Shown: positions 16,187 to 40,604 of the stretch, one piece after another
How the letters are laid out: every line of letters begins with the position of its first letter
How positions within the stretch are numbered: position 1 is the first letter of the stretch
Source of the DNA: an uncultured Gammaproteobacteria bacterium
Lineage (GTDB): Bacteria; Pseudomonadota; Gammaproteobacteria; JBBQDK01
Direction: 5' to 3'
Length of the DNA stretch: 64,000 bases
Assembly (NCBI GenBank): GCA_963778665.1
Contig: CAVZVG010000005.1
Location: 205,805-269,804, forward strand
Notes under the pieces: model-generated
What the model was told of the DNA's origin: nothing
Database searches by the model: none
Seen by the model: the letters and a program-made list of their open reading frames with translations, nothing else
Program-made: the position numbers and the translations under genes

Positions 16187-16358
16187 GACACTCACCTCAT
16201 TCTTCAATTACATGATTCTTGCGTTGCAAGAATAATATCTTTTTGTACTTGAACATTTGTTGACGAGCATCAAGCACAATGCCTTTTCACACTTGCAAGC
16301 AGGCAAATAAAGCACTCTCGTGTGGCGCGAGAGGACTGTTACCATCCATGATTCGAAA

Positions 16359-19032: not shown

Positions 19033-19654
19033 AACATCTCTCCTCACCTGAAACGCAGGCACAAAAAAGCCCGGACCGGGACGAATCCTGTGTCCGGGCG
19101 AATCTCACTTTGCTTTCACTAGCGTTTCAACTAGGAAAACGACTTATTATAACCAAACTTCACACAGCGAACGTGACCGCCCCCGCAGGTCGGACGTGAC
19201 CGACCACTCAACTCAAGAGATGCGTTTTGAACGTAAAAATGCACTTCGATGAATAATAAACATCATATCAATGTTCTATTGAACAATGAAGACCTGGACT
19301 AAAATCCTGAGTGACACTGACAAAAAAGTTCTGTCGATGATGATAAATGCCAGACTGCCAAAGTTGAATTTGACATCAGCTGCAACACACAAACATCTGA
19401 CCTCATCAGGCAATGCGAAGTGTTTTTTTCGCTGGCAAACCGGCCGGGGGCACACCGGACATGAACCATGAGTCGACTATACCCTGCAAATGCACTGTGA
19501 CCTGATTCGCAGTCCACTCGCGTATACCCGACTAGAATCATCCACAATAACCGAATCCGTCCGGCTGCCGTCGGGAATGCTGCGAGAGGCGCCATGAACG
19601 GGAATGGAGTTGCACAATGCAGTACCCATACAGCAAAAAACCGGGGGTCGCCTT

Positions 19655-20614
19655 ATGAGCGCCGCGATGCACTATTCCATGAAACTATCGCTGGGCAGCG
19701 AAGGCGCCTGGGTGCGCGGCGAGGAGGCCATCATGGGCACGCGGATCTGGGTCGAGCTGTGGGCGGATGACCGGCAGGACGGGGCCGCGGCCGTGTCCGC
19801 CGTGATGGACGAGATGCACCACATCAACCATTTGATGAGCCCGTTTCGACCCGACAGCGAGTTGTCGCGCATCAACACGCTGGCAGCGCAGGCGCCGGTG
19901 GCGGTCGGCGATGAATTGTTTCATGTCATCGAGCGCAGCCTGGAATTCTCGCGCCTGACGGACGGCGTCTTCGATGTCACCTTCTCCAGCGTCGGCAATC
20001 TGTACGACTACCGCAACGGCGTGCACCCGACCGAAAAACAGATCGAGGATGCATTACCGGGCGTGAATTACCGTCATGTCATTCTGAATCACGCGGCACA
20101 TACGGTGCGCTTCGAACGGCCCGGCATGCGCATCGATCTCGGCGGCATCGCCAAGGGCTATGCGGTCGAAAAGGCCGCCGCCATGCTGCACCGACGCGGC
20201 ATCCGCCACGCCCTGGTCACGGCGGGCGGCGACAGTCGGGTGCTCGGCGATCACCGCGGCCGCCCCTGGATGGTCGGTATCCGCGACCCGCGCAACAGCG
20301 AACGCGAAGTGGCGATGCTGCCGCTCAGCGATACCGCCATATCGACCTCCGGTGATTATGAACGCTTCTTCGAAGCGGACGGCGTACGCCATCACCACAT
20401 CCTCGATCCCAAGACCGGCAAATCCCCCGGCGAAATTCACAGCGTGACGATCATCGGACCGGACGGCATGACGACCGAAGGCATCTCGACCAGCGTCTTC
20501 ATTATGGGTGTGCGCCGCGGCATGGCACTGGTGAATTCATTGCCGGGCATCGCGGCAGTGATTGTCGACAAGGACGGCATGCTGCATTACAGCAAGGCCT
20601 TACAGCCTGCCTAG
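19655..20614 (+). CDS. apbE: FAD:protein FMN transferase ApbE; no signal peptide evident
   Basis: ..EEAIMGTRIWVELW..; DLGGIAKGYAVE; ISTSGDYERFFEADGVRHHHILDPKTG motifs. Start taken at MSAAM because the duplicated fragment begins at this ATG; the ORF track starts 17 codons earlier. Confidence 0.8.
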   Translation: MSAAMHYSMKLSLGSEGAWVRGEEAIMGTRIWVELWADDRQDGAAAVSAVMDEMHHINHLMSPFRPDSELSRINTLAAQAPVAVGDELFHVIERSLEFSRLTDGVFDVTFSSVGNLYDYRNGVHPTEKQIEDALPGVNYRHVILNHAAHTVRFERPGMRIDLGGIAKGYAVEKAAAMLHRRGIRHALVTAGGDSRVLGDHRGRPWMVGIRDPRNSEREVAMLPLSDTAISTSGDYERFFEADGVRHHHILDPKTGKSPGEIHSVTIIGPDGMTTEGISTSVFIMGVRRGMALVNSLPGIAAVIVDKDGMLHYSKALQPA

Positions 20615-20842: not shown

Positions 20843-21997
20843 CTAAAACCATATCGACAGATACACCTGCACGACATCGGCCGAGAATCCATACAGCGGT
20901 TCCTGACCCGGCGTGCCGCCTTGCGTGACATCGCGGAAATCCCGATAGGAAAACAGCATGTGGTTGTAGGCCATGTTCAAGGTGCTCTTGTTGATGGCCT
21001 TCCATCCAGGGCGCGTGAAGTCGTAACTCAAGCCCATGCCGAAACTCTGCGAACTGAAACTGCTGAGTTCCTTGTCGCGGGCCAGGTAGTTCTGCGCATC
21101 CAGGTACGGGAACAGATCGCTGTAGAAATCGGCCTTGCCCTGGGTGTAATACCGGTAACTGACATCGAGGATCCATTTGTCATGCAGCGGTTGTTTGTAG
21201 CCGATCTCCGCGGTGTGTGCCTTGACGCCCCAGGTGTCGGTATAGTAACGGTACTGTCCCTGCAGCCTGGCGCGATACGGCAGGTAATAGCGCGCGGTGA
21301 CAGCCAGGGCATTGCTGGTGTGGGTCTTGGGGTAGCGTTCCGGCTCGTAGCTGTAACCCTTGCCGCTGCTTGAATCGAGATAGCGCACCGATCGATACGG
21401 GTTATTGAGAAAGCCCTGATCGGTGACCAGTTCGTAACTCGTATCTATCAGCAGATCCTTGGTCAGCACCTGCGACAGTCCCAGCGTGTAGTTCTGGCGA
21501 TCGAGACTGGCGGAGAACGACGGCTGGCCGTTCTTGCCGACGGTGTCCCAACCCCGCGAGTAGCCCATCGATACCGTGGTCATATCGCCGAACAGGCTCT
21601 GGGTCAGGTCGAGGTTGGCGGTGTTGGCTTTGTAATCGCTTTCCGTACTGTTGGTGTAGCCCATGTTGAACGTGGTTTTGGCGTGCAGGTAGCCGAGACT
21701 GATATTTCCCTGGGTGCGCTGTTCGGAATAGGGGCTGGCGGTCGATACCACATCGATGGACGCACTGCTGACCGTGTCGACATAGTAGTTGCCGCTCACA
21801 TCGGCATTCTGCCCGATATGCTTCAGCACCAGCACCGATGGACCGCTGACGGTTACCCCGCCGCCGGAGTAGGAATGATACAAGGCATCGGCACGCTGAT
21901 CCGGCAGCACATCCGCGCCGGCCGGCAGGTGTTCGAGCAACAGACCGACGGCGATCAGCGGCCAGGTCGATTTAATTGCAGCCACAACCACCTCCAT
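20843..21997 (-). CDS. DUF3570-family outer-membrane beta-barrel protein
   Basis: C-terminal ..VQVYLSIWF (aromatic OMP terminus) and alternating beta-strand pattern. The Met at 21997 gives signal peptide MEVVVAAIKSTWPLIAVGLLLEHLPAGA; the ORF track allows an ATG at 22042. Partner of DUF4266, TlpA and ApbE. Confidence 0.6.
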   Translation of the reverse strand: MEVVVAAIKSTWPLIAVGLLLEHLPAGADVLPDQRADALYHSYSGGGVTVSGPSVLVLKHIGQNADVSGNYYVDTVSSASIDVVSTASPYSEQRTQGNISLGYLHAKTTFNMGYTNSTESDYKANTANLDLTQSLFGDMTTVSMGYSRGWDTVGKNGQPSFSASLDRQNYTLGLSQVLTKDLLIDTSYELVTDQGFLNNPYRSVRYLDSSSGKGYSYEPERYPKTHTSNALAVTARYYLPYRARLQGQYRYYTDTWGVKAHTAEIGYKQPLHDKWILDVSYRYYTQGKADFYSDLFPYLDAQNYLARDKELSSFSSQSFGMGLSYDFTRPGWKAINKSTLNMAYNHMLFSYRDFRDVTQGGTPGQEPLYGFSADVVQVYLSIWF

Positions 21998-22196
21998 GCC
22001 CGCCGTCGGCGCCGCGCGCGCCTTCACGCGCTTCGTGCACATGATTGAGATAAGCGGTCGACACCGGATTCGGGTCGGCGCTCATGATCGGGTCCGCCAG
22101 GTGGGCGCGCTCATATGGCTTGACCCACGGCTGGATATTGCCGCAGGCCGTGAGCATCAGGCCGAGCAATATCACCAAATGTGTTCGCAATGGCAT
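21972..22196 (-). CDS. DUF4266-family small lipoprotein
   Basis: MPLRTHLVILLGLMLTAC lipobox; ..PWVKPYERAHLADPIMS..; C-terminal GGGCGCN is typical of DUF4266. ATG sits 3 nt after the tlpA stop. Confidence 0.65.
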   Translation of the reverse strand: MPLRTHLVILLGLMLTACGNIQPWVKPYERAHLADPIMSADPNPVSTAYLNHVHEAREGARGADGGHGGGCGCN

Positions 22197-22198
22197 GA

Positions 22199-22705
22199 TC
22201 ACTCCCGCAACAGTTCGCTGACCTGCTGTTGATAGGTCTGCTCATAACCCGGCATATAACCCTGATGCAGATAGCGCACCTTGCCGTTGCGATCCACCAG
22301 CACGGTACTGGGCATGGCTTCGAGATTGTAGAGTTTGCTGACGACGCTCTGCGGATCGAACAGCACCGGAAAATGCACCGGATGCTCTTTCAGCAATGCC
22401 TGCGCCGCAGTCGTATCCTGCTCGACGTTGACACCGAGAATGGTGAAGCCGAGCTTCTGATAGCGCTGATAAAGCTCATCGAGCAACGGCATCTCCTGAC
22501 GACAAGGCCCGCACCAGGAGGCCCAGAAGTTGACCAGCACCACCTGACCGCGCAACTCGCTGAGCTTGAGATTCTCGCCACTCAGGCTCTTGAGTGTGAA
22601 ATCGGGTGCCGGTGGCGACGGCACAGAAGCCATCGCGCTGCTTACACACGCGGCCAGCAACACTGCACGCAAGGTGCGCGGAAGGAATCGAAAGCGTCTA
22701 TTCAT
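22199..22705 (-). CDS. TlpA-family periplasmic thiol:disulfide oxidoreductase
   Basis: WASWCGPC active site, signal peptide MNRRFRFLPRTLRAVLLAACVSSAMA, GGAG RBS. Confidence 0.8.
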   Translation of the reverse strand: MNRRFRFLPRTLRAVLLAACVSSAMASVPSPPAPDFTLKSLSGENLKLSELRGQVVLVNFWASWCGPCRQEMPLLDELYQRYQKLGFTILGVNVEQDTTAAQALLKEHPVHFPVLFDPQSVVSKLYNLEAMPSTVLVDRNGKVRYLHQGYMPGYEQTYQQQVSELLRE

Positions 22706-22754
22706 AATATTCTCCACATAGAGCACATGACAAAATGGATCTTGCGCTGCACTA

Positions 22755-22780
22755 TCACCCCCTCTCCCGGAGGGAGAGGG
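22755..22780. repeat. Family B GC-rich hairpin repeat (CCCTCTCCC-GGA-GGGAGAGGG)
   Basis: Same core as at 32635-32754 and 38570-38608. Lies in the tlpA / OMP-gene intergenic space. Confidence 0.55.
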
Positions 22781-22818
22781 AACTTACATTTTGAGCGACA
22801 TCCAAACGAGACCTACAC

Positions 22819-23478
22819 TCAGAAAAACACCGTCATGCCGCCGGTGAATTCCAGATTGTGCGTGGTCTTGCTGGTGCCGAGCAGATCGCTGCTGAAGACG
22901 TGATCGCGTACGTCCGCGTGCAAGGCCAGCCAGTCCGTGGCGAGCAGGCGGTAACCGGTGCCGAAGTTCACCGTGAAGCGGCTGTCGTTGGCGAATTTGG
23001 TGCTGCCGACACCGGCGATCACGTAGAGTGCCGAATTGAAGGCGTGCTTGCTGCCGATGAAGGCCTCGCCCGGCAGCAGGTTGTACCCCAGGGAGATGTT
23101 GTAATAGCTGTAGACACGTTCGGCATCGGTAAGCACACGGGCCGATCCGCTGAGCGTTTCGTAACTGGTCTTGCCGACGGTGCTGCGGCCGTAGGCGCCT
23201 TCGGCGAAGAAGTCCTCGGTGATGTGATAGGCACCGCGCAGGCCGTAGACCGGGTTCGAGCCGAAGTCTTCGACGCTGAGCACGCCGGCATAGGCACCCA
23301 GCTCGAAGTCGGCACTGTCGATATGCGGCGTCGTGATCGTACGCCGCGAAATACCGGGGTCGATGATCGGCTCATCCTGATCATCCGCGGCGAATGTCGC
23401 CGCGCTGCCGAGCGTCACGCAGGCCAGCAGCGCCGCGCCGAATCGCTTCAGAAAAATACCGTGCAGCCAATTTTCCAT
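22819..23478 (-). CDS. Outer-membrane beta-barrel protein (OmpA-like 8-strand barrel family)
   Basis: Signal peptide MENWLHGIFLKRFGAALLACVTLGSAATFA; C-terminal ..EFTGGMTVFF. Overlaps the upstream gene's stop by 31 nt. Confidence 0.6.
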   Translation of the reverse strand: MENWLHGIFLKRFGAALLACVTLGSAATFAADDQDEPIIDPGISRRTITTPHIDSADFELGAYAGVLSVEDFGSNPVYGLRGAYHITEDFFAEGAYGRSTVGKTSYETLSGSARVLTDAERVYSYYNISLGYNLLPGEAFIGSKHAFNSALYVIAGVGSTKFANDSRFTVNFGTGYRLLATDWLALHADVRDHVFSSDLLGTSKTTHNLEFTGGMTVFF

Positions 23479-24185
23479 TCGTTGATCCCCTGATTGCTGT
23501 CTCTGTTTTGATAGACGACATAATTGTTGTACTCGGCGCGCAGCAACAGGCGGCGCGCCAGATAGGTACGCACGCCGACACCGACGTGAGTGGTGCCGTC
23601 CGAGCGGTTCTGACTCTGTACCAGCGTGACCTGCGGGTCGGTTCGTATCACACCGCTGCCCAGCGCGAAGAACGGTGACACGCGCCATTCCGGGAACGGC
23701 TGCGCCACCAGGTTCACATTCAGCATCAGACTATCGGAATATGTCCCCAACACCTGCGACAGAGACAATTCCGTCGCCAGTGTCGGCGTGAAGGCATAAC
23801 CGCCGTAGGCAGTGATCACATGCGCGCCACCGAAACTGCCGCCCAGCACGCCCAGTTCCCAGCGCCGCCGGTTGTAGTCGTCACGGCTCGCATCCGCGAG
23901 GCGCAAGGGCTGACCGGCGGCAAGTTGCGTCTGCTCGATCTGCTTGCGTGTCACCCAACCCTGCTTGCCGCGTGCGGTGCGCACCTTGAACCAGTCGGTC
24001 TTGCGCAGCAGTATCTCTATCCATTCACCCCGCTCCGCCACATAGAAAATCGGATAGCCGCGTCCCGGTCCGGTATGCAGTTCGACATATGGTGCACGCA
24101 CCTCGACACGCAACGCTTCCTTGCCCTGCGCGAGCGGCACAACCAACCAGGCCAGCAACAGCCAGATGAGTACAGGCTTGCGCAC
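23448..24185 (-). CDS. SH3-domain plus outer-membrane beta-barrel fusion protein
   Basis: Bacterial SH3-like segment (ALRVEVRAPYVELHTGPGRGYPIFYVAERGEWIEILLRKTDWFKVRTARGKQGWV) then a barrel ending ..KIGCTVFF. A GTG start overlapping the upstream TAG (TAGTG) gives signal peptide MRKPVLIWLLLAWLVVPLAQG; the alternative ATG is at 24242. Confidence 0.6.
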   Translation of the reverse strand: MRKPVLIWLLLAWLVVPLAQGKEALRVEVRAPYVELHTGPGRGYPIFYVAERGEWIEILLRKTDWFKVRTARGKQGWVTRKQIEQTQLAAGQPLRLADASRDDYNRRRWELGVLGGSFGGAHVITAYGGYAFTPTLATELSLSQVLGTYSDSLMLNVNLVAQPFPEWRVSPFFALGSGVIRTDPQVTLVQSQNRSDGTTHVGVGVRTYLARRLLLRAEYNNYVVYQNRDSNQGINEWKIGCTVFF

Positions 24186-26818
24186 TAGTTGAGCGGCGCC
24201 GCAAACGGGTCGTTGTAATACTGCGCGCCGATGTCCAGCCATTCGGATATCAGGCGCAGTTCCGCCGGATTCAGCCAGCCCGCGTGCGTGCCGCCGCTGG
24301 CGAACTCGGCGAAGAAGCGACTCGAAGCGCGCGCCCCCGCCGTCGACATCGCAGGCGTCACCGGCACGGTGACCATGATCGGGATCGGCTGGTTGTTCAC
24401 ATCCAGCACCTGGTTGCCATTGGCATCGAGCAGGAACAGTGGATTGCCGTTGGCATCGGTGGCCTGGACCAGTTGATCCTGTAGCACGCCACCGACAAGT
24501 TCCTGCGCGTTGTCGGCGGCCAGCAACTCCTGGTAGGACTTCAGACGATCCGCCTGTTGGTCGGACTGACCGTCACTGAGATCAAGCTGCGCGGCGGGTA
24601 CCTGCGCCGCGCCGTTCAAATCCACATTGTTGTGACAATTGGTGCAGGTGTGATTGGCGATTTCCACCCCGTTGCCGTCCAGCACCGGACGAGGCGTACT
24701 CCAGAGCGGATGGATGTGCTGCGGATAATGTATGACGATGCGGCACAGGCTGTTCCACAGGATCTGGCAATTGGGCGTGGTCGGCGCGGGCGTGGTCAGG
24801 TCGCTATAGCGATAGCTGAAGTCGGCATCCTTGGCACGCAGCGCCGGATCGGTCCAGACATCGTCGAAGTTGATCTCGACGCTGGGCAGCAGTGCATTCG
24901 GTGTGAGGCGTGTGCGCGTCTCGGCCATGGTCTCGCCGTAATCGGCGAACATGGCAGGATCCGTGTCGGGGAAAGGCAGTCCGGTGGTGGGCGCGCCGGC
25001 ATTGATCGAGGTCGCGACGGCATCGGCCCGACCGTGCGCGGGCGGTGTCGCGGCACCGGTGTTGTGCTGATGGCAGCCGCTGCAGGTCTGCGTTTCGCCG
25101 GCACGCAGCTGCAGCCAGTTCGAGTGCCGCGCACCGATGCGCCGACCTTCGCTGTCGAGCACTTCGAGTTCGAAGGCGACATTGGCAGGCACTTCGATCT
25201 TCACCGAGCCGTCGGGTTCGATAGGCGCATAACCCAGTATCTCGCGCATCGACTGCTGACTGCTGGCGCCGAAGGCCGTGGCCTTGAAATCGCGCACCGT
25301 CTTATCCGGTATGCTGACGGCCTTCACCAGGCGCAGGAAACGCGCCGGACGCTGCGCCGCCGTGGTCTTGGCGGGATCGGCAAGATCGGCGAGTGATGTG
25401 ATGTTGGCGGCAGACGTGCAGTCACTGAGGAAGCAACCATTGAACGTGCCGGTGCCGAAATCGTAGACACTGCGGATATCCAGCACGCCGACGTTGTCCG
25501 CTATCAGACCCGCGTCGAGACCATTGCCGGCGATGCCGTCATACAACAGCGTCGGTCGCGGGCGCGGTTGCGCGACGATCACATCGGTATAGATCACGCC
25601 TTCCTGCGGCGCGACCACCGGCAGTTGCGTATCGCCGGCACGGTTATAAATGAAGATGCCATACAGTGGCGGCGCTTCCTGGACGTTTTGCGCGGCGAGA
25701 CCTTGCGCGGTGCAGGGCACGATATTGCCGTTTTCGATCAGACGACAGGCACTCCAGCTGACCAGCATGCGATCGGAGCCATCCCAGAGCGGATCGGCGG
25801 CACTGTATCGTCCGCCGGGCGAGGGACCGACGGCGGTCTGCACCGCATTGACTATCGCGCGGGTCTGCGCGGGCCCTGTCAGCACGTTCCGGCTCGTCCA
25901 GACCGGTCTATCGTTGTCGACATAGTCGGTCGTATCGATGAGCGTCAGATCGCCGCCCTGGTCGGTGCCGGTGAAGGGACGCGTGATCGTCAACAGGCGA
26001 CCGTCGGGATAAAGCCGCGGACGCAGGAACTGCACCGTATCGCCGGCACTGCCGGTGGCATGGCTGTGAGCGCCGTACAGCACCTGCATGTCCGTGCCAT
26101 CCGGGCGCACAGTATAGAGATTCATGGCATTGCTGGTGCCCATGTGATCCCAGCGGCTGAACAGCACCCGACCGTCACTGAGCAGCGTGGGATCGAGATC
26201 ATTGCTCTGGTTGAACGTGATCTGATGCATGTCGCTGCCGTCGCCGTTCATGACATGCAGTACCAGCGCCGCTTGCTGACGGTTTTCGTTCAGGGCGGCG
26301 AACTGCGGCTTGCCTTCATCGAGCAGTACGGCGCGTGACTGCCGTTGGCGCGTGGATGAAAAAACGATACGCCCATCGGCGAGGTAATGCGGCGCGACAT
26401 CATCGCCTTCTTTGGCGATGATGTCGGAGCTGATCAGACGGTGCAGTTGCCGGCTGACAGTATCGTACTCCCAGATATTCCATTTGGTCTGATCGGCGGG
26501 AGTCGCGCCGGTTATTTCCGGTTCGTGCAGCGCGAACAGCAGCGTCTTGCCGTCGTACGAGGCAGTGACATCCTTCACATCGCCAAGTCCTTGCGTCACG
26601 GTCGCGGTGACATTGCGCTCCGCCGCGCTGGGTGACGCGTAATCGCGATAATACAGATCGCCGCCGGGCGACATGGCCAGGGGATCGCGCGCATCTTCCT
26701 GTTGATCTGCTATCAAAGGACGCTTCACATAGGCAATGCCGACATCGGCGACGATCGGATCGGGCGCCTGACTGCCGCCACCGCAGCCGGTGAGATGCAA
26801 CAACAGACACGCCAACAT
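24185..26818 (-). CDS. Lipoprotein with a TolB/WD40-like beta-propeller region and two c-type haem-binding motifs
   Basis: Lipobox MLACLLLHLTGC. PD40-like repeats (..GRIVFSSTRQRQSRA.., ..GRVLFSRWDHMG..). CSGCHQHN and CTNCHNNV CxxCH motifs. 877 aa. Confidence 0.65.
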   Translation of the reverse strand: MLACLLLHLTGCGGGSQAPDPIVADVGIAYVKRPLIADQQEDARDPLAMSPGGDLYYRDYASPSAAERNVTATVTQGLGDVKDVTASYDGKTLLFALHEPEITGATPADQTKWNIWEYDTVSRQLHRLISSDIIAKEGDDVAPHYLADGRIVFSSTRQRQSRAVLLDEGKPQFAALNENRQQAALVLHVMNGDGSDMHQITFNQSNDLDPTLLSDGRVLFSRWDHMGTSNAMNLYTVRPDGTDMQVLYGAHSHATGSAGDTVQFLRPRLYPDGRLLTITRPFTGTDQGGDLTLIDTTDYVDNDRPVWTSRNVLTGPAQTRAIVNAVQTAVGPSPGGRYSAADPLWDGSDRMLVSWSACRLIENGNIVPCTAQGLAAQNVQEAPPLYGIFIYNRAGDTQLPVVAPQEGVIYTDVIVAQPRPRPTLLYDGIAGNGLDAGLIADNVGVLDIRSVYDFGTGTFNGCFLSDCTSAANITSLADLADPAKTTAAQRPARFLRLVKAVSIPDKTVRDFKATAFGASSQQSMREILGYAPIEPDGSVKIEVPANVAFELEVLDSEGRRIGARHSNWLQLRAGETQTCSGCHQHNTGAATPPAHGRADAVATSINAGAPTTGLPFPDTDPAMFADYGETMAETRTRLTPNALLPSVEINFDDVWTDPALRAKDADFSYRYSDLTTPAPTTPNCQILWNSLCRIVIHYPQHIHPLWSTPRPVLDGNGVEIANHTCTNCHNNVDLNGAAQVPAAQLDLSDGQSDQQADRLKSYQELLAADNAQELVGGVLQDQLVQATDANGNPLFLLDANGNQVLDVNNQPIPIMVTVPVTPAMSTAGARASSRFFAEFASGGTHAGWLNPAELRLISEWLDIGAQYYNDPFAAPLN

Positions 26819-27159
26819 GCCGCGCAGAACGTGGCAGGGCGTGGTCGATCCGTTGGCAGTGACATTCAGAATACGCACCTACACACATCCATCCATTGTC
26901 TGTCGCTGGGATTGCATTATCGTTTGACAGTGATTTCACGATCTGACGACGTGATCACAAAAATGTCAGGAAAAGTTTGCAGAATGGTCACCACAGAGTC
27001 GGGCAACATGCAGGGACGGAAAAGATGCCGGTTATCGGGGACAGCATTGATGATGACACACCGATCTGTGCAGGACGCGCAACAACACTCTATGCGATGT
27101 CCGGATCGACAGACCGCAACCGGCACTCAAACGACAGGCAACAGAAGGGGAAACAGCCA

Positions 27160-28377
27160 ATGACGGTCAGCGTGAAACATCGCGATTCAACGCGGTTGCG
27201 TCTGGTGATCCGGGCTTTGCTCGCAGGCTGCCTGCTTCTCGGCGTCACCGACGCGGCCATGGCCGGCGCCCGCGAACAGGCCAAGCGTCTGCATGACCGG
27301 CTCACCGGCGTACCGCCGAGCGCCACGGTATTGGATACGATGCAGGCGGACATCAGCGGTGGCGATCCATTATCGGCCGCCTATCTGGCCATGGACAACA
27401 GTGCCTTTTACAACGTGACGCTGAAGGACTTCGTCACGCCCTGGACCAATCGCGATCAGACCGTGTTCGCGCCGCTCAACGACTACACCGCCACCGTGAT
27501 CGGCATGGTGCGCGACGATGTGGACTTCAGGAAAGTGCTGTACGACGACATCCTCTATGTCGGCGCGGGCAACCTCGGCCTGCCGGCCTATGCCATGACC
27601 AACAACGATCTTTATGACGCCATGGAAACACAGGGCATCGATCTCAAAACCAATCTGGTCGCCACCACGCAATCGGCCAAGACCGATCTGCCGGCGGCTG
27701 CCACCGCCGGCATCATGACCACGCGCGCCGCCGCACAGGCCTTCTTCATTGCCGGCACCAACCGCGCCATGCTGCGCTTCACTTTCATCAATTACCTCTG
27801 CACCGATCTGGAACAGTTGAAGGACATAACCCGTTCGCCGGACCGCATCCGTCAGGATGTTTCGCGCAGTCCGGGCGGCGACAGCCGGATCTTTCTCAAC
27901 TCCTGCGTCGGTTGCCATGCCGGCATGGACCCGATGGCGCAGGCCTATGCCTATTACAACTACGACGCCCCCAGCGCACGACTGGTCTACAACGGCGTAT
28001 CGGCCATCGACCCCAGCACCGGCACGCGCGTGCAGGCCAAGTACCATATCAACTCGGATAATTTCAAATACGGCTACGTGACGCCCGACGATCGCTGGGA
28101 CAACTACTGGCGCAGCGGCCCCGACGCCCTGCTCGGCTGGGACAGCACGCTGCCCGGCGGCGGCAATGGCGCGAAATCCCTGGGGCAGGAATTGGCGAAC
28201 ACCGAGGCCTTCGCGCAATGCCAGGTCAAGAAGGTCTTCAAGACCGTCTGCCTGCGACCGCCGGGCAACGCGGCCGATCGCAATCAGATCGACACCATGG
28301 TCACCTCGTTCAAATCGAACGGCTATCACTTGAAACGCACGTTCGCCGAGGCGGCCGTGTATTGCATGGGTGATTGA
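27160..28377 (+). CDS. Secreted mono-haem cytochrome c-type protein of unknown family; possibly a planctomycete-type PSCyt-like domain
   Basis: Signal peptide MTVSVKHRDSTRLRLVIRALLAGCLLLGVTDAAMA; single CVGCH motif; 406 aa. RBS AAGGGG. Divergent from the beta-propeller gene. Confidence 0.6.
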   Translation: MTVSVKHRDSTRLRLVIRALLAGCLLLGVTDAAMAGAREQAKRLHDRLTGVPPSATVLDTMQADISGGDPLSAAYLAMDNSAFYNVTLKDFVTPWTNRDQTVFAPLNDYTATVIGMVRDDVDFRKVLYDDILYVGAGNLGLPAYAMTNNDLYDAMETQGIDLKTNLVATTQSAKTDLPAAATAGIMTTRAAAQAFFIAGTNRAMLRFTFINYLCTDLEQLKDITRSPDRIRQDVSRSPGGDSRIFLNSCVGCHAGMDPMAQAYAYYNYDAPSARLVYNGVSAIDPSTGTRVQAKYHINSDNFKYGYVTPDDRWDNYWRSGPDALLGWDSTLPGGGNGAKSLGQELANTEAFAQCQVKKVFKTVCLRPPGNAADRNQIDTMVTSFKSNGYHLKRTFAEAAVYCMGD

Positions 28378-28433
28378 GTGTCATTGCCAAGACATGGACA
28401 CACGGCGTCCGCTACAGACTGTGGAGAGGCATC

Positions 28434-30928
28434 ATGAACGACACGCGCAAGTCGGTTGTTGCTATGCATAACATGTCGCCTCATCGCGGTACGGCCTGGA
28501 CATACTTGCTGGCGGCACTTGTGCTGCTCGGCCTGTCGGGTTGCGGTGGCGGCAGCACCACGCAGAACCCCAACACCAGCGGCCCGCAGGCGCTGGACTA
28601 TACGGGGCCGGCGGCAAGCACGGCCGATGTGCAGGCCTTCAAACTCAATGTCTGGGACAATCTGCGCGCGACCAACCGCTGCGGCGCCTGTCACGGTGCC
28701 GGCGGCCAGGCACCCAACTTCGTGCGTCAGGACGATGTCAATCTGGCCTATGCCGCGGCGAACCCGCTGGTCGATCTGAGCTCGCCGGCCGATTCGCGCA
28801 TGGTGGTCAAGGTATCCGGCGGTCACAACTGCTGGCTGGCGAGTTCCGCGGCGTGCGGCGCGGTGCTCACCGCCTACATCAGCGCCTGGGCCGGTGGTTC
28901 GGTCGGCGGTCCTGCCCAGCAGATTCAACTGGTGGCGCCACCGATCAAGGATGCCGGCGCCAGCAAATCCTTCCCGGCCGATCCCAGCCTGTTCGCCAGC
29001 ACGGTGCATCCTCTGCTCATGGCACATTGCGCCGGCTGTCACACCGATACCTCGGCGACACCGCAGGCGCCGTTCTTCGCGGTCAGCGATGCCGCGAGCG
29101 CGTATGACGCCGTGACATCCAGTCACAAGATCGATCTGGACACACCGGCCAATTCACGGCTGGTCGTGCGTCTGCGCGACGAGTTTCACAACTGCTGGAG
29201 CGATTGCCAGAGCAATGCCGACGAGATGCTCGCCGCGATCACCAGCTTTGCCAACGGCGTACCGGTCACCGCGGTCGATCCGTCGCTGGTGATCAGCAAG
29301 GCCCTGAAGCTGACCGACGGCATCATCGCCAGCGGCGGCAGCCGCAACGTCGCCAATGTCATCGCGCTGTACGAATTCAAGACCGGCACGGGCAGCACCG
29401 CCTACGACACCAGCGGCGTGGAACCGGCACTGAATCTGACATTGTGCGGCGACGTCGGCTGGGTGAACGGCTGGGGCATCGATATCCGCAACGGCAAGGC
29501 ACAGGGCACGACCGCGGCGAGCAGCAAGCTCAGCAAACTGATCAAGGCCACCGGCGAATACACGATCGAAGCCTGGGTGGTGCCGGCCAATGTCACGCAG
29601 GAAGGACCGGCGCGCATCATCAGCTATTCGGGCGGCACCACGACGCGTAACTTCACGCTCGGACAGACGCTCTACAACTACGATTTTCTGCAACGCAGCA
29701 GCAACTCCGACGGCAACGGCGAACCGGCTTTGTCGACCGCCGATGCCGCGGAACGCCTGCAGGCCACGCAGCAGCATGTGGTCGTGACCTATACCCGACG
29801 CAAGGCCGGCGCATCTACGTCAATGGCGTGGATACCGGCGATCAGGATCCGCTGGCCGGCGGCAGCCTGGCGGACTGGGACGACAGTTTCGCCTTCGTGC
29901 TCGGCAACGAAGTCTCCGGCGACCGTCTCTGGCAAGGCAAGCTGCGCATGGTGGCGATTCACAACCGCGCCCTGACGCCGGAGCAGATCCTGCAGAATTA
30001 CAAGGCCGGCGTCGGCGAGAAATACTATCTGCTGTTCGATGTCAGCGCGCTGGTAAACCTGCCGCAGAGCTACATCATGTTCGAGGTCAGTCAATTCGAC
30101 AACTACAGCTATCTGTTCCTCAAGCCGACCTTCATCAGTCTCGATCCCAGCGTCACGCCCGGCAACATCCCGCTGCGCGGCCTGCGTATCGGCATCAACG
30201 GCAAACTGGCCAAGGTCGGCCAGAGCTACAGCGAGCTCGATACCGCAATCACCGCCGCACAATACAGCAGCAGCGGGCAGCTGTTGTCGGACCTCGGCGC
30301 GGTGATCGCCAGCGAGAAAGGCGCCGATGCGGACGAGTTCTTCCTGGACTTCGAGTCACTCAACGGTCACGACAACGTCATCACGGAACCCGCGCCGCTG
30401 CAACCGCCGCCGCCTGCCGACAGCGCGCCGGTCGCCGACATCGGTGTGCGCACCTTCGACGCGATCAACGCGACCATGGCGGCACTGACCGGCGTCAGCC
30501 CGAACGAAAGCAACGTGAAGACCACCTTCGACACCATCAAGCAGCAACTGCCCACAGTGACGAACATCGAAGGCTTCGTGTCCGCGCATCAGGTCGCGGT
30601 CGCCCAGCTGGCCATCGAGTATTGCAACGCGCTCGGCGATGACACCACGTTGCGCGCCGCTTACTTCCCGTCACTGGACTTCAGCGCGAGTGCCGCCAGC
30701 GCGTTTGCCGACAGCACCGGTCGCAACCTGCTCATCGATCCCCTGCTGAGCCGGATGCTGGGCAGCAACATCGCCACGCAACCCGACAGCACGGCGGTGC
30801 GTACCGAACTCGACAACCTGATCGTGAAACTCACGCCGTGCACCGGGTCGTGCGGTACTCGTACAGTCACGATCACCAAGGCGGCCTGCGCGGCGACCCT
30901 GGGCAGCGCCGCGATGCTGGTGCAATGA
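28434..30928 (+). CDS. Lipoprotein with two CxxCH motifs, a LamG (concanavalin-like) domain and a C-terminal domain; apparent frameshift near 29810
   Basis: Lipobox LLGLSGC. CGACHGAGG and CAGCHTDTS. The LamG domain (..EAWVVPANVTQEGPARIISYSGG..YTRRKAG) continues in the next frame as RIYVNGVDTGDQDP..WQGKLRMVAIHNRALTPEQI. The shift lies in a GGCCGGCGC run. Combined product is about 830 aa. Confidence 0.6.
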
Positions 30929-30946
30929 GCACTGTTATATCCAATG

Positions 30947-30980
30947 TAGGTTGGGCTGAGCGCAGCGAAGCCCAACAACC
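30947..30980. repeat. Diverged REP-like palindrome GTAGGTTGGGCTGAGCGCAGCGAAGCCCAACAACC
   Basis: Inverted repeat GTTGGGCT/AGCCCAAC, 19 nt after the stop of the LamG lipoprotein gene; variant of family A. Confidence 0.5.
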
Positions 30981-31001
30981 GTGGCACACGAGGAAATACT
31001 T

Positions 31002-32605
31002 ATGGTGAGCAAACGCAGACCCCTGTTGCCGGACGAGCCCTTGCTGCACGCGCATCACAAGCGCCCCGTCACGCGCCGCGATTTTCTGGCGCAGGGCTTG
31101 CGGGCTGGCATCGGCATGGCTACTCGCGCCATCGATCTTCGGCCTGTTCGCCGATCCGCGCGCCGCGCAGGCCGCGCTGTCATCGGACCTGCAGGCCTTG
31201 AAGACATCCTGCGGTATCGCCGTGGCGGGCGCCGGCAAGATTCCGTTCATCTGTTTCGATCTGGCCGGCGGCGGCAACATCTCCGGCTCCAATGTACTGG
31301 TCGGCAAGCAAGGCGGTCAGCTGGATTTTCTCAGCACGGCCGGCTACAGCAAGCTGGGCCTGCCCGGCGACATGGTGCCGTCCATCGTCAATCCACTCAC
31401 CGCCAGCAATGATTTCATCGACAGCAGTCTGGGGCTCGCGTTTCATTCCGACAGTGCCTTTGCGCGCGGCATACTGGAACGCGTCTCGCCGGGCACGGCC
31501 GCGAACATCAACGGCGCGGTGCTGCCGGCGCGCTCCGACAACGACACCAGCAACAATCCCCACAACCCCATGTACGGCATCAACAAGGCCGGCGCCGACG
31601 GTGAACTGCTGACATTGATCGGTTCGCAGAACTCCGATTCGGGCGGCAACTCGATGGCACCGGCCGACATGATCAATCCCAAGGTACGGCCCACCAAGAT
31701 CGACCGGCCCAGCGATGTCACCGGCCTGGTCGATACCGGCAAGCTGGTCGGCTTGTTGAGCCAGCAGGATGCCGTCGCGGTCATGGAATCCATCGAGCGC
31801 ATCAGCGCCATGAAACTCGGCAAGGTCGATACCAAGATCAGCGACCGATGCGGTGGTGAAGGATCTGGTGCAATGCGGTTACGTGAAGTCCGCCGATCTG
31901 GTGGACCGTTACGGCGATCCCGACGACACTCAATCCTTCCATCGATGCCCGCATCGTCGGCAGCAGTGGCATCTTCACGCAGGCCGAGTTCGACGGCGAC
32001 AGCCGAATTCCGCAAAACCGCCTCGATCATGAAACTGGTGACCAATGGCTTCGCCGGCGCCGGCACCGTCAGCATGGGCGGCTTCGACTATCACACCGGC
32101 GACCGCTCCACCGGCGAACTGCGCGATCTTGCGCGCCGGTCGCTGCATCGGCGCCTGCCTGGAATACGCGGCACGCGTCGGCGTACCGCTGATGGTCTAT
32201 GTGTTCAGCGACGGTTCACTGGCCAGCAACGGCATGGTCGATAACTCCGTCGATGGCCGCGGCAAGGGCGTGTGGACCGGCGACAACTCCGATACCGCCG
32301 CGTCGTTCTTTCTGGTGTACAACCCCACGGGCCGGCCGACATTGCTCGGCGGCACGTCGAGCGCCAGGCCATGCATCAGCAGATCGGCTGGTTCCGCAGC
32401 CGACGGTTCGGTGGAAACCGCCAGCAGCCCCGCGGCCAACAACGTCAACCTGCTCGCCGAAACCGTCGTACTGAATTACATGGCACTGCACGGCGAACAG
32501 GGCAACTTCGCCAGCCTGTTCCCCGGCAACGGTCTGGGCAGCCCTACTCTCCTGGACAGCCTTACCGCCTTTCAACCCATCGTCAACGGGACTATCGGAG
32601 CATGA
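31002..32605 (+). pseudogene. DUF1501-like (sulfatase-superfamily) Tat-secreted protein gene, broken by three or more frameshifts
   Basis: Twin-arginine signal MVSKRRPLLPDEPLLHAHHKRPVTRRDFLAQGLRAGIGMA with GAGGAAA RBS. DUF1501-like blocks (..IPFICFDLAGGGNISGSNVLVG.., ..MGGFDYHTGDRSTGEL..) are spread over three frames (ORFs 30981.., 31198.., 32045..). Confidence 0.5.
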
Positions 32606-32634: not shown

Positions 32635-32754
32635 TCTCCCTCTCCCTTGAGGGAGAGGGTTGGGGTGAGGGGGATAAATGGCGCCTGTATCGATTTTCGC
32701 GCCAGACTCCACACCCCCTCACCCTGGCCCTCTCCCCCGAAGGGGGCGAGGGGA
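32635..32754. repeat. Family B composite palindromic element (about 120 bp)
   Basis: CTCCCTCTCCC-TTGA-GGGAGAGGG, TTGGGGTGAGGGGG ... CCCCCTCACCC, CCCTCTCCCCC-GAAG-GGGGCGAGGG; nested inverted repeats. A spurious minus-strand ORF (32216..32722) runs through it. Confidence 0.55.
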
Positions 32755-32766: not shown

Positions 32767-33276
32767 ATGGCGTGGGCGATTGTCAGTCTGCTGCTTCTGT
32801 TACCCGTGTCCGTGTCTGCCGCCGACACACCCGCCGCCATCGACGAACAAGTGCAATCCCTGAAATCGGAAGTGCTGAACCTGAACCGCGATCTGTTCGT
32901 GCTGGAGGAGGAACTGCTGTATCCGTCCAGCACCCAGGTGGCGGTATTCCTGTCGCTGGATGTCGGCACCTTCTTCAAGTTCGATTCGGCGCAAGTCAAG
33001 ATCGACGACAAGATCGTCGCCAACTATCTGTACACCGCGCGTGAACTGGAGGCCTTGCGCCGTGGCGGCGTGCATCGCATCTACATGGGCAACCTGAGCA
33101 GCGGCAAACATGAGCTGGTGGCCTTGTTCACCGGTCAGGGGCCCAATCAGCGCGATTACCGGCGCGGCGCCACACTCAACTTCGACAAGAGCGTCGGTCC
33201 GAAATACATCGAACTGAAGATCGTCGACAAGGAAGGCAAGCAGCAGCCGGATTTCCAGATCAGGGAATGGGAATAG
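32767..33276 (+). CDS. Secreted coiled-coil hypothetical protein; possibly DUF3450-like TonB-system accessory
   Basis: Signal peptide MAWAIVSLLLLLPVSVSA; heptad-like IDEQVQSLKSEVLNLNRDLFVLEEELL. Its stop overlaps the next gene's ATG. Confidence 0.5.
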   Translation: MAWAIVSLLLLLPVSVSAADTPAAIDEQVQSLKSEVLNLNRDLFVLEEELLYPSSTQVAVFLSLDVGTFFKFDSAQVKIDDKIVANYLYTARELEALRRGGVHRIYMGNLSSGKHELVALFTGQGPNQRDYRRGATLNFDKSVGPKYIELKIVDKEGKQQPDFQIREWE

Positions 33277-35150
33277 TGCGGCGGAAATTTCGACTCCGCG
33301 CCGACTGTCTGCTGTACCTCGCACTGACGCTACTCGGCGGGACGGCTGCAGCAGCGGACCAGGCCCCGCCCCGTCAGGTCCTCGACCTGCACTACGGCGA
33401 GGTGCTGTTCTATTTCTATCAGGGCGATTATTTCGACGCGATCACCCGTGCCTTGAGCGCACAGCAACAACGGCAAGTCCCGCACCACCAGCAGGACACG
33501 GCCCTGCTGACCGGTGGCATGGAACTGTCTTACGGCATGGATCGCGCGGCACAAAAGGCATTCGACGACCTGCTCGATGCCAAGGTCGCCGAGCCGGTGC
33601 GCAACCGCGCCTGGTTCTATCTCGCCAAGCTGAGTTACCAGCGCGACAATCTTGCCCAGGCGCAGCAAGCCTTGGCACACATCGATGGCGCACTGCCCGA
33701 ATCGATTGCACCGCAACAATCCTTGCTGCGCGCCCAGGTACTGATGGCGCAGGGACACTATGATCAGGCCGCCGCCTTGCTGGATGGCTGGAAGGGGCCG
33801 ACCGACTGGCAGGCCTATGCACGCTTCAATCTCGGCGTGGCCCTGCTGCGCAGCGGCAAAGCCGCGCAGGGTGAGCGACAGCTCGATACAGTCGGTCAAC
33901 TGAGCAGCGACAGCGAAGAACTGCTGGCCTTGCGCGACAAGGCCAACCTGGCGCTGGGTTATACCTTGTTGCAACAAAAAGACGCCGCGCGCGCCCGGCA
34001 ATACCTGGAACGCGTGCGCTTGCAGGGCCCGTTTTCCAATCAGGCCCTGCTGGCCTTCGGCTGGGCGGCGTCCGCACAAGGCCAGCAGCAACAGGCGCTG
34101 GTGCCCTGGCAGGAATTGAGCGGGCGCACCGTCATCGACAGCGCGGTGCAGGAGGGACTGCTCGCGGTGCCCTATGCCTACGCGCAATTGCAGGCCTACC
34201 CTGCCGCGGCGCAGCACTATCAGCAGGCCATCAGTGCTTATGAAAACGAGATGCGCAATCTCGATGCCGCGATCGCCACGATCCGGCAGGGTAAACTGCT
34301 CGACACCATGCTCGGCACCGCACAGGACACTGCCGACATGGGTTGGTCATGGCGCGCCGCGCCGCCACCGCAGACGACGGAGACACAGTATCTCTGGCAA
34401 CTGCTGGCCGGTCATGAATTTCAGGCGGCCCTGAAAAACTACCGCGATCTGCGGTTTCTGCAACACAATCTGACGCACTGGTCGACCAGCATCGATGCCT
34501 ATCAGGATATGCTGAACGGCCGCGAAGCGCGCTATCGGCAACAACTGCCGCAGGTCCGCGCACGCATGCAGTCACTGGACCTGAATGCTCTGATCACGCA
34601 ACGCGACGCGCTGGCTGCACGCCTGGCAGACAGCGAACGCGACCGCAATACCCTGGCACTCGCAACCCGGCAGGAACTCGACTGGCAGGCGCGGATGACG
34701 CGCATCGCGCAACGCCTCGATCGCCTGGACAACACGCCGGAAACCGCCGCATTGCGCGAGCGTCTGCGGATCTTGCAAGGTGTGCGGATCTGGCGCCAGA
34801 ACGCCGATTACAGCGCACGTCTCTGGCAGGCGCGTCAATCACTGCGCAGTCTCGACGCCGCCATCGCCACATTGCGGCAACGCTGGGCCTCACTGCAAAC
34901 CGCGCAACAGCAGGCCCCGCACGGCTTCGAGGGGTACGCGCAACGCATCACCGCGCTGCGTGCGCGCATCGCCGCATTACAACCGCGCATCGCCGCCGCC
35001 AGCGCCGCGCAGTCCCGGCAATTGCAGACACTGGCAATAACGGCACTGGAAGGCCATAAGAAACATCTGGCGGAATATCGTGTGCAGGCCCAACTGGCAC
35101 TGGCACAGATCTATGATCGCGCCAGCAGCGCACCCGGAGCGACACCATGA
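33267..35150 (+). CDS. Secreted TPR-repeat protein
   Basis: 627 aa, signal peptide, multiple TPR-like Ala/Leu/Gln-rich helical repeats. Overlaps both neighbours, so translationally coupled. Confidence 0.6.
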   Translation: MGIVRRKFRLRADCLLYLALTLLGGTAAAADQAPPRQVLDLHYGEVLFYFYQGDYFDAITRALSAQQQRQVPHHQQDTALLTGGMELSYGMDRAAQKAFDDLLDAKVAEPVRNRAWFYLAKLSYQRDNLAQAQQALAHIDGALPESIAPQQSLLRAQVLMAQGHYDQAAALLDGWKGPTDWQAYARFNLGVALLRSGKAAQGERQLDTVGQLSSDSEELLALRDKANLALGYTLLQQKDAARARQYLERVRLQGPFSNQALLAFGWAASAQGQQQQALVPWQELSGRTVIDSAVQEGLLAVPYAYAQLQAYPAAAQHYQQAISAYENEMRNLDAAIATIRQGKLLDTMLGTAQDTADMGWSWRAAPPPQTTETQYLWQLLAGHEFQAALKNYRDLRFLQHNLTHWSTSIDAYQDMLNGREARYRQQLPQVRARMQSLDLNALITQRDALAARLADSERDRNTLALATRQELDWQARMTRIAQRLDRLDNTPETAALRERLRILQGVRIWRQNADYSARLWQARQSLRSLDAAIATLRQRWASLQTAQQQAPHGFEGYAQRITALRARIAALQPRIAAASAAQSRQLQTLAITALEGHKKHLAEYRVQAQLALAQIYDRASSAPGATP

Positions 35151-38523: not shown

Positions 38524-38569
38524 ACAGAGCGATTCTCGGAGCAACCAACCTGAATCTTGCAAACCACTG

Positions 38570-38608
38570 TCACTCCCTCTCCCTCCGGGAGAGGGTTGGG
38601 GAGAGGGG
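38570..38608. repeat. Family B hairpin repeat (CCCTCTCCC-TCC-GGGAGAGGG plus TTGGGGAGAGGGG)
   Basis: Same core as 22755 and 32635. Lies between the TPR lipoprotein and the small secreted-protein gene. Confidence 0.5.
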
Positions 38609-38630
38609 ACTCTTTCTGTTAGGTGCTCTT

Positions 38631-38891
38631 GTGCGTTGTCTGTCGGTCGGTCTGTTGCTGTGCGGAAGTTCCGTGCATGCCGAACAGAATCTCGATCTGC
38701 AAGGCGCGACCATCACCGGCAATCGCGAATTGCCCAAGGTGTTGTACATCGTGCCGTGGAAGCAACCCGATCCGGCCGATCTCGGTGCCGGTGCCGGTCC
38801 GAACATGATGGATGAAGTGCTGGCGCCGGTGGATCGCGATGTGTTCAAGCGCCAACTGCAATATTACGACGCACTTCACAGTCGGCGGTAA
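38631..38891 (+). CDS. Small secreted hypothetical protein (about 86 aa)
   Basis: GTG start giving MRCLSVGLLLCGSSVHA signal peptide. The ORF-track extension to 38520 would read through repeat B. Precedes exbB. Confidence 0.4.
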   Translation: MRCLSVGLLLCGSSVHAEQNLDLQGATITGNRELPKVLYIVPWKQPDPADLGAGAGPNMMDEVLAPVDRDVFKRQLQYYDALHSRR

Positions 38892-40111: not shown

Positions 40112-40114
40112 GGC

Positions 40115-40603: not shown

Positions 40604-40604
40604 C

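Follow-up and report, generated by a model that had tools for sequence, protein, structure and literature searches.

A conserved gammaproteobacterial block of exported-protein genes with predicted flavin, haem and thiol sites, apparently built from three older modules

In a 64,000-nt stretch of DNA from an uncultured Gammaproteobacteria bacterium (GTDB lineage JBBQDK01; GCA_963778665.1, contig CAVZVG010000005.1, positions 205,805 to 269,804), hereafter called the window, a block of nine genes for exported proteins was found at positions 20843-32605, with an apbE gene lying outside these coordinates and converging on it. The minus arm of the block encodes a DUF3570 protein, a DUF4266 protein, a TlpA-type protein, an outer-membrane (OM) barrel, an SH3-barrel and a protein resembling the alpha subunit of hydrazine synthase (HzsA-like), and the divergent plus arm a monohaem protein, a LamG protein and a protein with a twin-arginine (Tat) signal. 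Genes were called as open reading frames (ORFs) guided by GC content at third codon positions (GC3) and translated, the products were scanned with Pfam and NCBIfam, and the gene models were checked against relatives of 84-92% identity. The genes described in an original prediction, made from the letters of the window, were all found where it had placed them. It had spoken of about twelve genes, and there are nine inside these coordinates plus apbE outside. The searches with hidden Markov models (HMMs) assigned families to most products (ApbE, DUF3570, DUF4266, Redoxin, OMP_b-brl, HZS_alpha and Laminin_G_3). The features are as follows.

19655-20614, plus strand: apbE, FAD:protein FMN transferase (PF02424, 281 bits), converging on the DUF3570 gene
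20843-21997, minus strand: DUF3570 protein, predicted OM beta-barrel (PF12094, 147.6 bits, cut-off 25; C-terminus ...SIWF)
21972-22196, minus strand: DUF4266 protein, small lipoprotein (PF14086, 77.6 bits; lipobox LTAC; ends in GGGCGCN)
22199-22705, minus strand: TlpA/ResA-type periplasmic thiol:disulfide oxidoreductase (Redoxin, 113 bits; ResA subfamily, 124.9 bits; WCGPC)
22819-23478, minus strand: OMP_myx_plus small OM beta-barrel (TIGR04565, 174 bits, cut-off 60; OMP_b-brl)
23448-24185, minus strand: SH3 domain fused to an OM beta-barrel (SH3_3, SH3_4 and OMP_b-brl matches; GTG start)
24185-26878, minus strand: HzsA-like lipoprotein, 897 aa (PF18582, 59.4 bits; PD40/Tricorn_N-type propeller; two CxxCH)
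26879-27159, no strand: divergent intergenic region between the arms (no regulator box above background, no Rfam match)
27160-28377, plus strand: monohaem protein (CVGCHAGMDP) with a PSD2/DUF1585-like C-terminal domain (weak PSD2 match)
28434-30928, plus strand: di-haem LamG lipoprotein (two CxxCH...HNCW units, Laminin_G_3, conserved C-terminal helical domain; one frameshift)
31002-32605, plus strand: Tat-exported (TRRDFL) alkaline-phosphatase-superfamily protein (seven frameshifts in the assembly)

Every product of the nine-gene block carries an export signal (Sec, lipoprotein or Tat), which bears out the view that the block encodes envelope proteins only; the announced Tat signal is the motif TRRDFL. 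Three of the products are lipoproteins, none of them with Asp at position +2, and three are barrels, each with a C-terminal F or Y. The predicted cofactor sites comprise five CxxCH motifs, two tandem flavinylation-type motifs, one WCGPC and one C-terminal CGC. The gene junctions were also described correctly. The GTG start of the SH3-barrel gene overlaps the TAG of the upstream gene by one base at 24185, the gene models agreeing with the 84-92% identical relatives; a 31-nt overlap joins the SH3-barrel and OM barrel genes at 23448-23478; and a 113-nt gap precedes the TlpA gene, whose ATG lies at 22705. The dual-coded 31-nt overlap is kept across genera, in the loci L081, L082, L088 and L090 as in the window, which suggests that the two barrels are translationally coupled. 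The DNA of this overlap encodes the ...FFF beta-signal at the C-terminus of the SH3-barrel in one frame and the signal peptide of the next barrel in another.

Relatives were sampled by scanning one genome per GTDB species. At least 580 genomes contain an HzsA-like relative, and the best 80 loci were examined. The presence of each gene in order and orientation was counted by tblastn of the window proteins against the loci, with the loci of sufficient flank as denominators (ApbE was counted within 10 kb of the block).

Monohaem protein: 58/58 loci
LamG protein: 58/58 loci
Tat alkaline-phosphatase-like protein: 57/58 loci
SH3-barrel: 62/62 loci
OM barrel: 61/62 loci
DUF4266: 61/62 loci
DUF3570: 61/62 loci
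TlpA: 44/62 loci
ApbE, within 10 kb: 16/41 loci

The comparison of neighbourhoods was thus strongly positive, the propeller cytochrome and OM protein genes co-occurring in order with those of DUF3570 and DUF4266. Each gene but TlpA and ApbE is in its place in 57-62 of 58-62 loci, which is far beyond chance and leaves the block almost unaltered across dozens of marine gammaproteobacterial species, and the overlapping stops and starts within the arms are kept across genera. Carriers were found in Woeseiaceae, Steroidobacteraceae, Chromatiales, Thiodiazotropha, Sedimenticola, Thiogranum, Microbulbifer, Aliiglaciecola, Marinobacter and Alcanivoracaceae. When all ORFs of 83 loci were clustered de novo in search of other flanking families, none apart from the TPR genes, found in 36 loci, and ApbE, found in 22, was present in more than 15. 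Since the flanks vary around a constant block, its conservation is not a matter of general synteny. Two block types could be distinguished among the 41 loci with full flanks, one containing TlpA (30/41) and a TlpA-less, Woeseiaceae-like one (11/41). The observation of a conserved envelope block is confirmed, with the corrections given here, and sequence comparison indicates that it is a genuine, strongly conserved gammaproteobacterial envelope system built from three older modules.

In the control regions, boxes for Fur, FNR, Zur, NsrR, ArcA, CRP, PhoB, sigma-54 and sigma-E were at background level across 63 divergent intergenic regions, no riboswitch or other RNA family of Rfam was found in the intergenic region, and a promoter and terminator scan gave counts at the level of shuffled sequence. 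A motif resembling promoters of extracytoplasmic function (ECF) sigma factors, TGTGATCGCGTTAACGGTA followed about 17 nt later by CGTCCA, was observed 70-240 nt upstream of the HzsA-like gene in L042, L048, L055, L057, L059, L070, L071 and L078. It is frequent in the TlpA-less type and, among the full-flank loci, occurs only in this Woeseiaceae-like type; no ECF sigma gene was noticed nearby. The window has a degenerate copy within 26879-27159, about 80 nt upstream of the HzsA-like start at 26878.

The first module is that of ApbE, DUF3570, DUF4266 and TlpA. The DUF3570 protein has two tandem putative ApbE-type flavinylation motifs, DTVSSASIDVVSTAS, and at least 51 of 63 orthologues have the tandem motif DxxSSASIDVxTTAS. 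Its centre is mostly Ser or Thr instead of Gly, with SGAS or TGAS at either site in some orthologues. The last residue of the DUF3570 protein is F or Y in 54 of 56 orthologues, as expected for an OM barrel. The C-terminal CxC of DUF4266 (GGGCGCN) was found in all 68 orthologues, and the CxxC of TlpA (WCGPC) in 50 of 51. The original prediction described ApbE as cytoplasmic-looking, and this is real: the start at 19655 agrees with that of the relatives P0392-P0395, which likewise have no signal peptide. These four proteins, 85-92% identical and from independent assemblies, share the N-terminus MSAAMHYSMKLSLG..GAW, devoid of a hydrophobic core. The absence of a signal peptide, shared across assemblies, is therefore a trait of the lineage. 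More distant block-linked ApbE orthologues, of about 60% identity, have classical signal peptidase I (SPI) signal peptides.

This module contradicts the claim of the original prediction that the region has no recognisable characterised counterpart. Meheust et al. (2021, eLife, PMC8238504) described clusters in which ApbE and DUF3570 are joined by a thioredoxin-like protein and by DUF4266 with its CxC, with or without DsbD, and whose role they left open. They showed experimentally that the cognate ApbE flavinylates a Chlorobium DUF3570 protein at two [S/T]GA[S/T] sites. The same four families stand side by side here as in the "DsbD systems" of that paper. On the other hand, the block has no DsbD nearby, a DsbD-family donor being present in 227 of 543 published flavinylation clusters; the reductase is of the Redoxin/TlpA type and not PF13899; the Gly of the motif is mostly replaced by Ser or Thr; and ApbE has no signal peptide in the lineage of the window. 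The module is also joined here to an HzsA-like cytochrome, two small barrels and a haem/alkaline-phosphatase triad, partners that are not mentioned in the text and part of the supplement of PMC8238504. We consider the block a flavinylation-associated extracytosolic redox cluster with extra modules, each of which has a published or solved counterpart.

The window has a second copy of the 5' end of apbE, the two forming a direct repeat of 125 nt with 92% identity (14081-14204 and 19655-19777). The copies flank a 5.57-kb segment of lower GC, which contains an ORF of 383 aa with no family match (15056-16207) and an 829-aa barrel protein of BBP2_2/EpsL-like and OMP_b-brl type (16573-19062). In L088, a 92% identical relative, a pseudouridine synthase gene lies directly beside apbE, which gives the segment of the window the look of an insertion or rearrangement.

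The second module consists of the HzsA-like lipoprotein and its two barrels. The OMP_myx_plus barrel ends in F in 67 of 69 orthologues. The lipoprotein, which has more than 4000 database relatives, almost all of them without a name, consists of a beta-propeller, then an HZS_alpha middle domain with a CxxCH at its end, and finally a C-terminal domain that also has a CxxCH. The original prediction had recognised a TolB-like propeller lipoprotein with two haem motifs, which stands, and had overlooked the homology with hydrazine synthase alpha. When the family profile was compared with the PDB, the sole match was 5c2v_A (E = 8e-13), in three colinear segments covering the propeller, the middle domain up to its CxxCH and the C-terminal helix past the second haem. 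HzsA (PDB 5C2V, chain A) thus shares the order of the propeller, the middle domain ending in W..RP....CxxCH and the C-terminal haem domain, with the motif ...H....L...E..LI.EW.D.GAQ, so the absence of a counterpart does not hold here either. Residues C599, C602 and H603 and C745, C748 and H749 are invariant in the HzsA-like family. However, sequence similarity to HzsA is very low, the protein is a lipoprotein, the HzsB and HzsC partners are absent and the hosts are non-anammox Gammaproteobacteria. The score against NCBIfam hydrazine_alpha (NF052339) is 48.9 bits with a cut-off of 800, and the protein is not an HzsA equivalog. In hydrazine synthase, haem alpha-I is penta-coordinate with a Tyr ligand, presumably at His+4, and there is a Zn site; here, the His+4 position holds Thr or Ser (Thr607 in the window), which is a lead only. 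A 931-aa Tricorn_N protein of L086, considered as an HzsA-like candidate, was rejected for having no CxxCH and no tblastn match.

The HzsA-like protein could be the catalytic centre for a small nitrogen compound (NO, hydroxylamine or of hydrazine type), with the other proteins supplying or draining electrons. Its sole solved relative is hydrazine synthase alpha, colinear over the propeller and both haem domains, and denitrification or life at oxic-anoxic interfaces is common among the carriers, as record titles also indicate. A metagenomic survey (bioRxiv 10.1101/2024.06.05.597523), the only mention in the searched literature of the HZS_alpha middle domain outside anammox, counted proteins of HzsA architecture from ten phyla as anammox or novel hzsA. 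Such a role is improbable given the low hydrazine_alpha score, the strictly aerobic heterotrophs among the carriers (e.g. Microbulbifer) and the fact that no hzsB, hzsC or hydrazine dehydrogenase gene was found in the window or in about 80 loci. The same architecture lies here in a wholly different gene context, which makes it unsafe as an anammox marker when used alone, and metagenomic surveys should leave HzsA-like genes with neighbours of this kind out of their anammox counts.

The third module is the triad of the plus arm. The monohaem protein of the window scores 20.6-20.9 bits against PSD2 (PF07624), depending on the ORF start, with a gathering score of 25.8. A PSD2 match was found in 21 of 31 orthologues at E <= 0.01 (best E 1.1e-6), and a single CxxCH in 65 of 66. 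Two CxxCH are conserved across the orthologues of the LamG protein, as they are in the HzsA-like protein. Searches of PDB profiles with the monohaem, LamG and DUF3570 families returned nothing useful except LamG/CBM40-like sialidase domains. For the Tat protein, called DUF1501-like in the original prediction, no Pfam or NCBIfam match was obtained with the pieces from the window, three intact orthologues or 65 diverse representatives. The DUF1501 model (PF07394) itself matched none of the three intact orthologues at E <= 0.1 and none of the 65 representatives at E <= 0.01. We therefore dropped DUF1501 as a family label and treat the protein as belonging to an unmodelled alkaline-phosphatase-superfamily family; the likeness holds at the level of fold and superfamily, as DUF1501 presumably has the alkaline-phosphatase fold too (Pfam clan CL0088).

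This Tat family is large, with 1500 representative clusters at 50% identity in a profile search. An AlphaFold2 model reached a pLDDT of 88 with a diverse alignment and 52.6 with a shallow one, and in this model the family has an alkaline-phosphatase-superfamily fold together with the twin-arginine signal. The invariant positions are the twin arginines, G89, G90, D179, D359, H361, D404, G405 and D428. The predicted fold with invariant D179, D359, H361, D404 and D428 suggests a metal site, and hence a candidate metalloenzyme. In NCBI records of metagenome-assembled genomes, the homologues P0121, P0203, P0213 and P0240 are labelled "general secretion pathway protein GspF"; to judge from the Tat signal and the fold, a wrong annotation seems to have been passed on here.

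The LamG and Tat genes are broken in the assembly. There is one frameshift in the LamG gene near 29795, the two halves matching Laminin_G_3 positions 12-90 and 90-150, and the gene is intact in the relative L090 (832 aa). Frameshift-aware alignment located seven frameshifts and no in-frame stop in the Tat gene; the corrected product has 78% identity over its full length to intact homologues and retains all family-invariant residues. Real pseudogenization of the Tat gene was rejected on these grounds. The frameshifts in both genes are very probably assembly or polishing errors rather than decay, given the absence of stops, the retained invariants and the intact LamG gene of a close relative. 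Other frameshifts, which we ascribe to errors of the same kind, are in a radical-SAM gene (about 3505) and in the TPR gene for a protein of about 930 aa (about 36372). They are clustered, with seven in one 1.6-kb gene, the most conserved of the block, and about one in each of three other genes across 64 kb. The sites are not long homopolymers, and several are near CGAC, CGAT or GATC. The cluster is probably an artefact of long-read consensus or polishing, perhaps from cross-mapped reads of related populations.

The pairing of a Tat protein with CxxCH and LamG proteins has a published counterpart as well. In bacteria of the PVC group (Planctomycetes, Verrucomicrobia and Chlamydiae), modules of DUF1501 with PSCyt/PSD proteins, with or without Laminin_G_3, have been described (PMC3542564, PMC5615132). 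Both those of Kamneva et al. 2012 (PMC3542564) and the DUF1585/DUF1588-DUF1552 pairs share with the triad a Tat protein beside CxxCH proteins, among them a partner with Laminin_G_3 and a PSD2-like one. They differ in that the Tat protein here matches no Pfam model, DUF1501 and DUF1552 included, and that the partner is here divided over two proteins, one monohaem and the other a di-haem LamG protein. The triad is also present in a single copy per genome, not dozens, and is embedded in a larger redox block (compare PMC3542564).

In distant lineages, the loci L083, L085 and L086 have the triad alone, consisting of a monohaem protein, a protein of about 232-252 aa (a lipoprotein in L083) and the Tat enzyme (31-39% identity). 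The monohaem proteins are homologous with an hhalign probability of 100%, and the 232-aa lipoprotein of L083 is a homologue of the C-terminal domain of LamG (97%). In L086, a di-haem plus beta-sandwich protein is encoded as a separate neighbouring gene. We suggest that the triad is old as a unit and that the di-haem-LamG part was fused to it in Gammaproteobacteria.

The stand-alone triads could also mean that the block is a collection of three or four independent envelope modules with no common function, adjacent by inheritance or by co-transfer in the manner of selfish operons. DUF3570 modules are likewise known without the block partners, e.g. in Chlorobium (PMC8238504), and TlpA, ApbE and the downstream core described below are variably present. 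We consider this unlikely, because some 60 species from several taxonomic orders have the same gene order and orientation in differing surroundings, one divergent control region is common to both arms, and genes overlap inside the arms.

Downstream of the Tat gene, the region 32767-41579 contains the following genes, along with one for a secreted protein of about 93 aa.

32767-33279, plus strand: conserved secreted protein of 170 aa, first gene of an Agl/Glt-like cluster (59-68% identity to the L081 and L082 genes)
33267-38523, plus strand: three TPR proteins by TPR family matches, of 627 aa, about 930 aa (frameshift at about 36372) and 197 aa (TPR lipoprotein, 37930-38523)
38931-41579, plus strand: ExbB/TolQ-like protein, two ExbD/TolR-like proteins and a proline-rich TonB-like protein (MotA_ExbB and ExbD matches)

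The 170-aa protein has no family match, and its counterparts in L081 and L082 (171 and 182 aa) are in the same position. The L081 orthologue of the TPR protein of about 930 aa matches YbgF and BamD-like repeats. The 197-aa TPR lipoprotein matches GltE weakly (38 bits, threshold 225). The C-terminus of the TonB-like protein matches AgmX/PglI (NF033768) with 69 bits, above the cut-off of 40, and GltG (43.8 bits) and GltJ (33.3 bits) weakly; GltD and GltC had no matches among the proteins of the cluster. These genes probably correspond to the Agl/Glt-type core complex of Luciano et al. 2011 (PMC3169522), the ancestral core of the machinery for gliding motility, found linked in Gammaproteobacteria such as Marinobacter and called there a complex of unknown function, so the alleged lack of a counterpart fails on this side too. 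Composition and order fit that core (TPR proteins, a TPR lipoprotein, an ExbB/TolQ-like protein, two ExbD/TolR-like proteins and a proline-rich AgmX/PglI-type TonB, plus an extra small gene). The cluster differs from the published core in that only the GltG-type C-terminal domain is above its curated cut-off, the equivalog scores for GltE, GltG and GltJ being far below. Linkage to a redox block was not reported in that paper (PMC3169522).

Among the 41 full-flank loci, the core abuts the redox block in 24, including 23 of the 30 TlpA-containing loci versus 1 of the 11 TlpA-less ones. In 23 loci it is on the side of the triad and in 8 on that of DUF3570, always running in the direction of the adjoining arm. 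A core that may stand on either side and is always co-directional indicates linkage retained despite rearrangement. Long intergenic inverted repeats resembling repetitive extragenic palindromes (REP) were observed at 32640-32747, between the Tat gene and the cluster, and at about 38530-38620, and read ...LRERVGVRG... and ...GEGWGEG... in translation. In Rfam, the repeat at 32640-32747 matched only miRNA-precursor models, far below threshold.

Alternatively, the block may be a machine that handles an envelope polymer or glycolipid. By analogy with Glt/Nfs, the Agl/Glt-type motor would move or assemble an OM platform, LamG would bind a glycan, the phosphatase-like enzyme would be a phospho- or sulfo-transferase or an esterase, and the redox parts would be auxiliary, for maturation, protection or sensing. 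This possibility is rather doubtful: the redox parts, with five conserved haem sites, two for flavin and a pair of thiol proteins, would be costly as accessories, no gene for a glycosyltransferase, polysaccharide export or lipopolysaccharide is conserved beside the block, and the core is not near the TlpA-less blocks.

Reductive acquisition or handling of iron or copper at the OM was also considered, with the barrel and the haems reducing the metal, the CGC lipoprotein carrying it and the TonB-like protein energising the process. TlpA-type reductases function in copper-site assembly, and a TonB-like system is adjacent. Flavinylation clusters are often beside iron transporters, with VIT1 in 25 DUF3570 clusters (PMC8238504). 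This is a very improbable explanation, as neither a metal transporter, TonB-dependent receptor or siderophore gene nor a Fur or Zur box was found in or near the block, and the TonB-like protein belongs to the GltG/AgmX type rather than to that of nutrient uptake.

Elsewhere in the window, the region 48739-63653 encodes a periplasmic Cu/Zn superoxide dismutase, hypF/D/B/A, an Isp-type [NiFe] hydrogenase (small subunit, HdrD-like CCG/Fer4 protein and large subunit) and HupE, and a DsrE gene is present at about 9746-10303. These genes, taken with DsrE, suggest that the host is a gammaproteobacterium oxidising sulfur and hydrogen.

We suggest, with a probability of roughly 40%, that the block proteins form one redox machine close to the OM, on its inner face. 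In such a machine, the first module would be a thiol-to-flavin relay from the TlpA-type reductase over the DUF4266 CGC lipoprotein to the DUF3570 barrel, in which ApbE would load covalent FMN at the two sites. The second would be an OM-anchored HzsA-like propeller with two c-type haems, encoded in overlapping register with the two barrels, and the third would combine the monohaem PSD2-like protein, the LamG lipoprotein with two haems of bis-His type and the Tat alkaline-phosphatase-superfamily metalloenzyme. Reducing equivalents could enter as thiols (DsbD/CcdA to TlpA to DUF4266), from soluble cytochromes, or both. Electrons may be relayed over two flavins and five haems, in an order and direction that we infer. 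They would then act on a ligand that is bound to the LamG and propeller domains and converted by the alkaline-phosphatase-like enzyme. The Glt-type core, with its ExbB/ExbD motor, GltG-like TonB and TPR scaffolds, probably energises or positions the OM part.

The original prediction had proposed an electron- or substrate-handling system from the periplasm to the OM. The conserved exported unit, the cofactor motifs and the positive comparison make a role of this kind the most reasonable reading, which is partly supported: the exported unit stands, and the path of the electrons is a proposal. Functional analogues are the MtrCAB porin-cytochrome conduits and the fused Cyc2, where a redox cofactor on or in an OM barrel is combined with periplasmic or lipoprotein cytochromes. 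There is no sequence relationship with them, the barrel cofactor here would be a covalent flavin and not a haem, and the cytochromes carry one or two haems instead of ten.

Several results weigh against a single redox machine. The three modules are found apart in other phyla, with the triad alone in L083, L085 and L086. TlpA is missing from 18 of 62 loci, and an ApbE gene is within 10 kb of the block in just 16 of 41. No signal peptide was found for ApbE of the window when sought in every frame. No DsbD-family, CcdA or quinol dehydrogenase protein that could serve as input was found among the scanned ORFs of the block and window, and no regulatory box or riboswitch hints at a substrate. The enzymes known from the alkaline-phosphatase superfamily are hydrolases, transferases or mutases, none of them redox.

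A further possibility, which we regard as rather unlikely, is that the redox block is the missing OM "output" module of the ancestral Agl/Glt core in non-gliding Gammaproteobacteria. The whole would then be an envelope-spanning machine driven by the proton-motive force, whose OM end consists of the flavinylated barrel, the haem lipoproteins, among them the HzsA-like propeller, and the new alkaline-phosphatase-superfamily enzyme, the barrel being a flavin counterpart of the cytochrome-porin Cyc2. If true, hundreds of species, from marine sediments or living as symbionts, would possess a trans-envelope redox system that is energised and of a kind so far unrecognised.

No paper linking the modules was found in the searched literature, where DUF3570 and DUF4266 are rarely mentioned. 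The modules are known separately, and their union appears undescribed there. It provides a genomic context and candidate partners for DUF3570 flavoproteins, non-anammox HzsA-like proteins, modules of Tat phosphatase-like proteins and PSD cytochromes, and the Agl/Glt core. Cultured carriers (Microbulbifer epialgicus DSM 18651, Aliiglaciecola sp., Lentisalinibacter sediminis and Thiogranum longum) make genetics feasible. Woeseiaceae are among the most abundant bacteria of marine sediments, and the carriers include chemosynthetic symbionts (Thiodiazotropha); a conserved single-copy system with five predicted haems and two predicted flavins is likely to be physiologically important to them.

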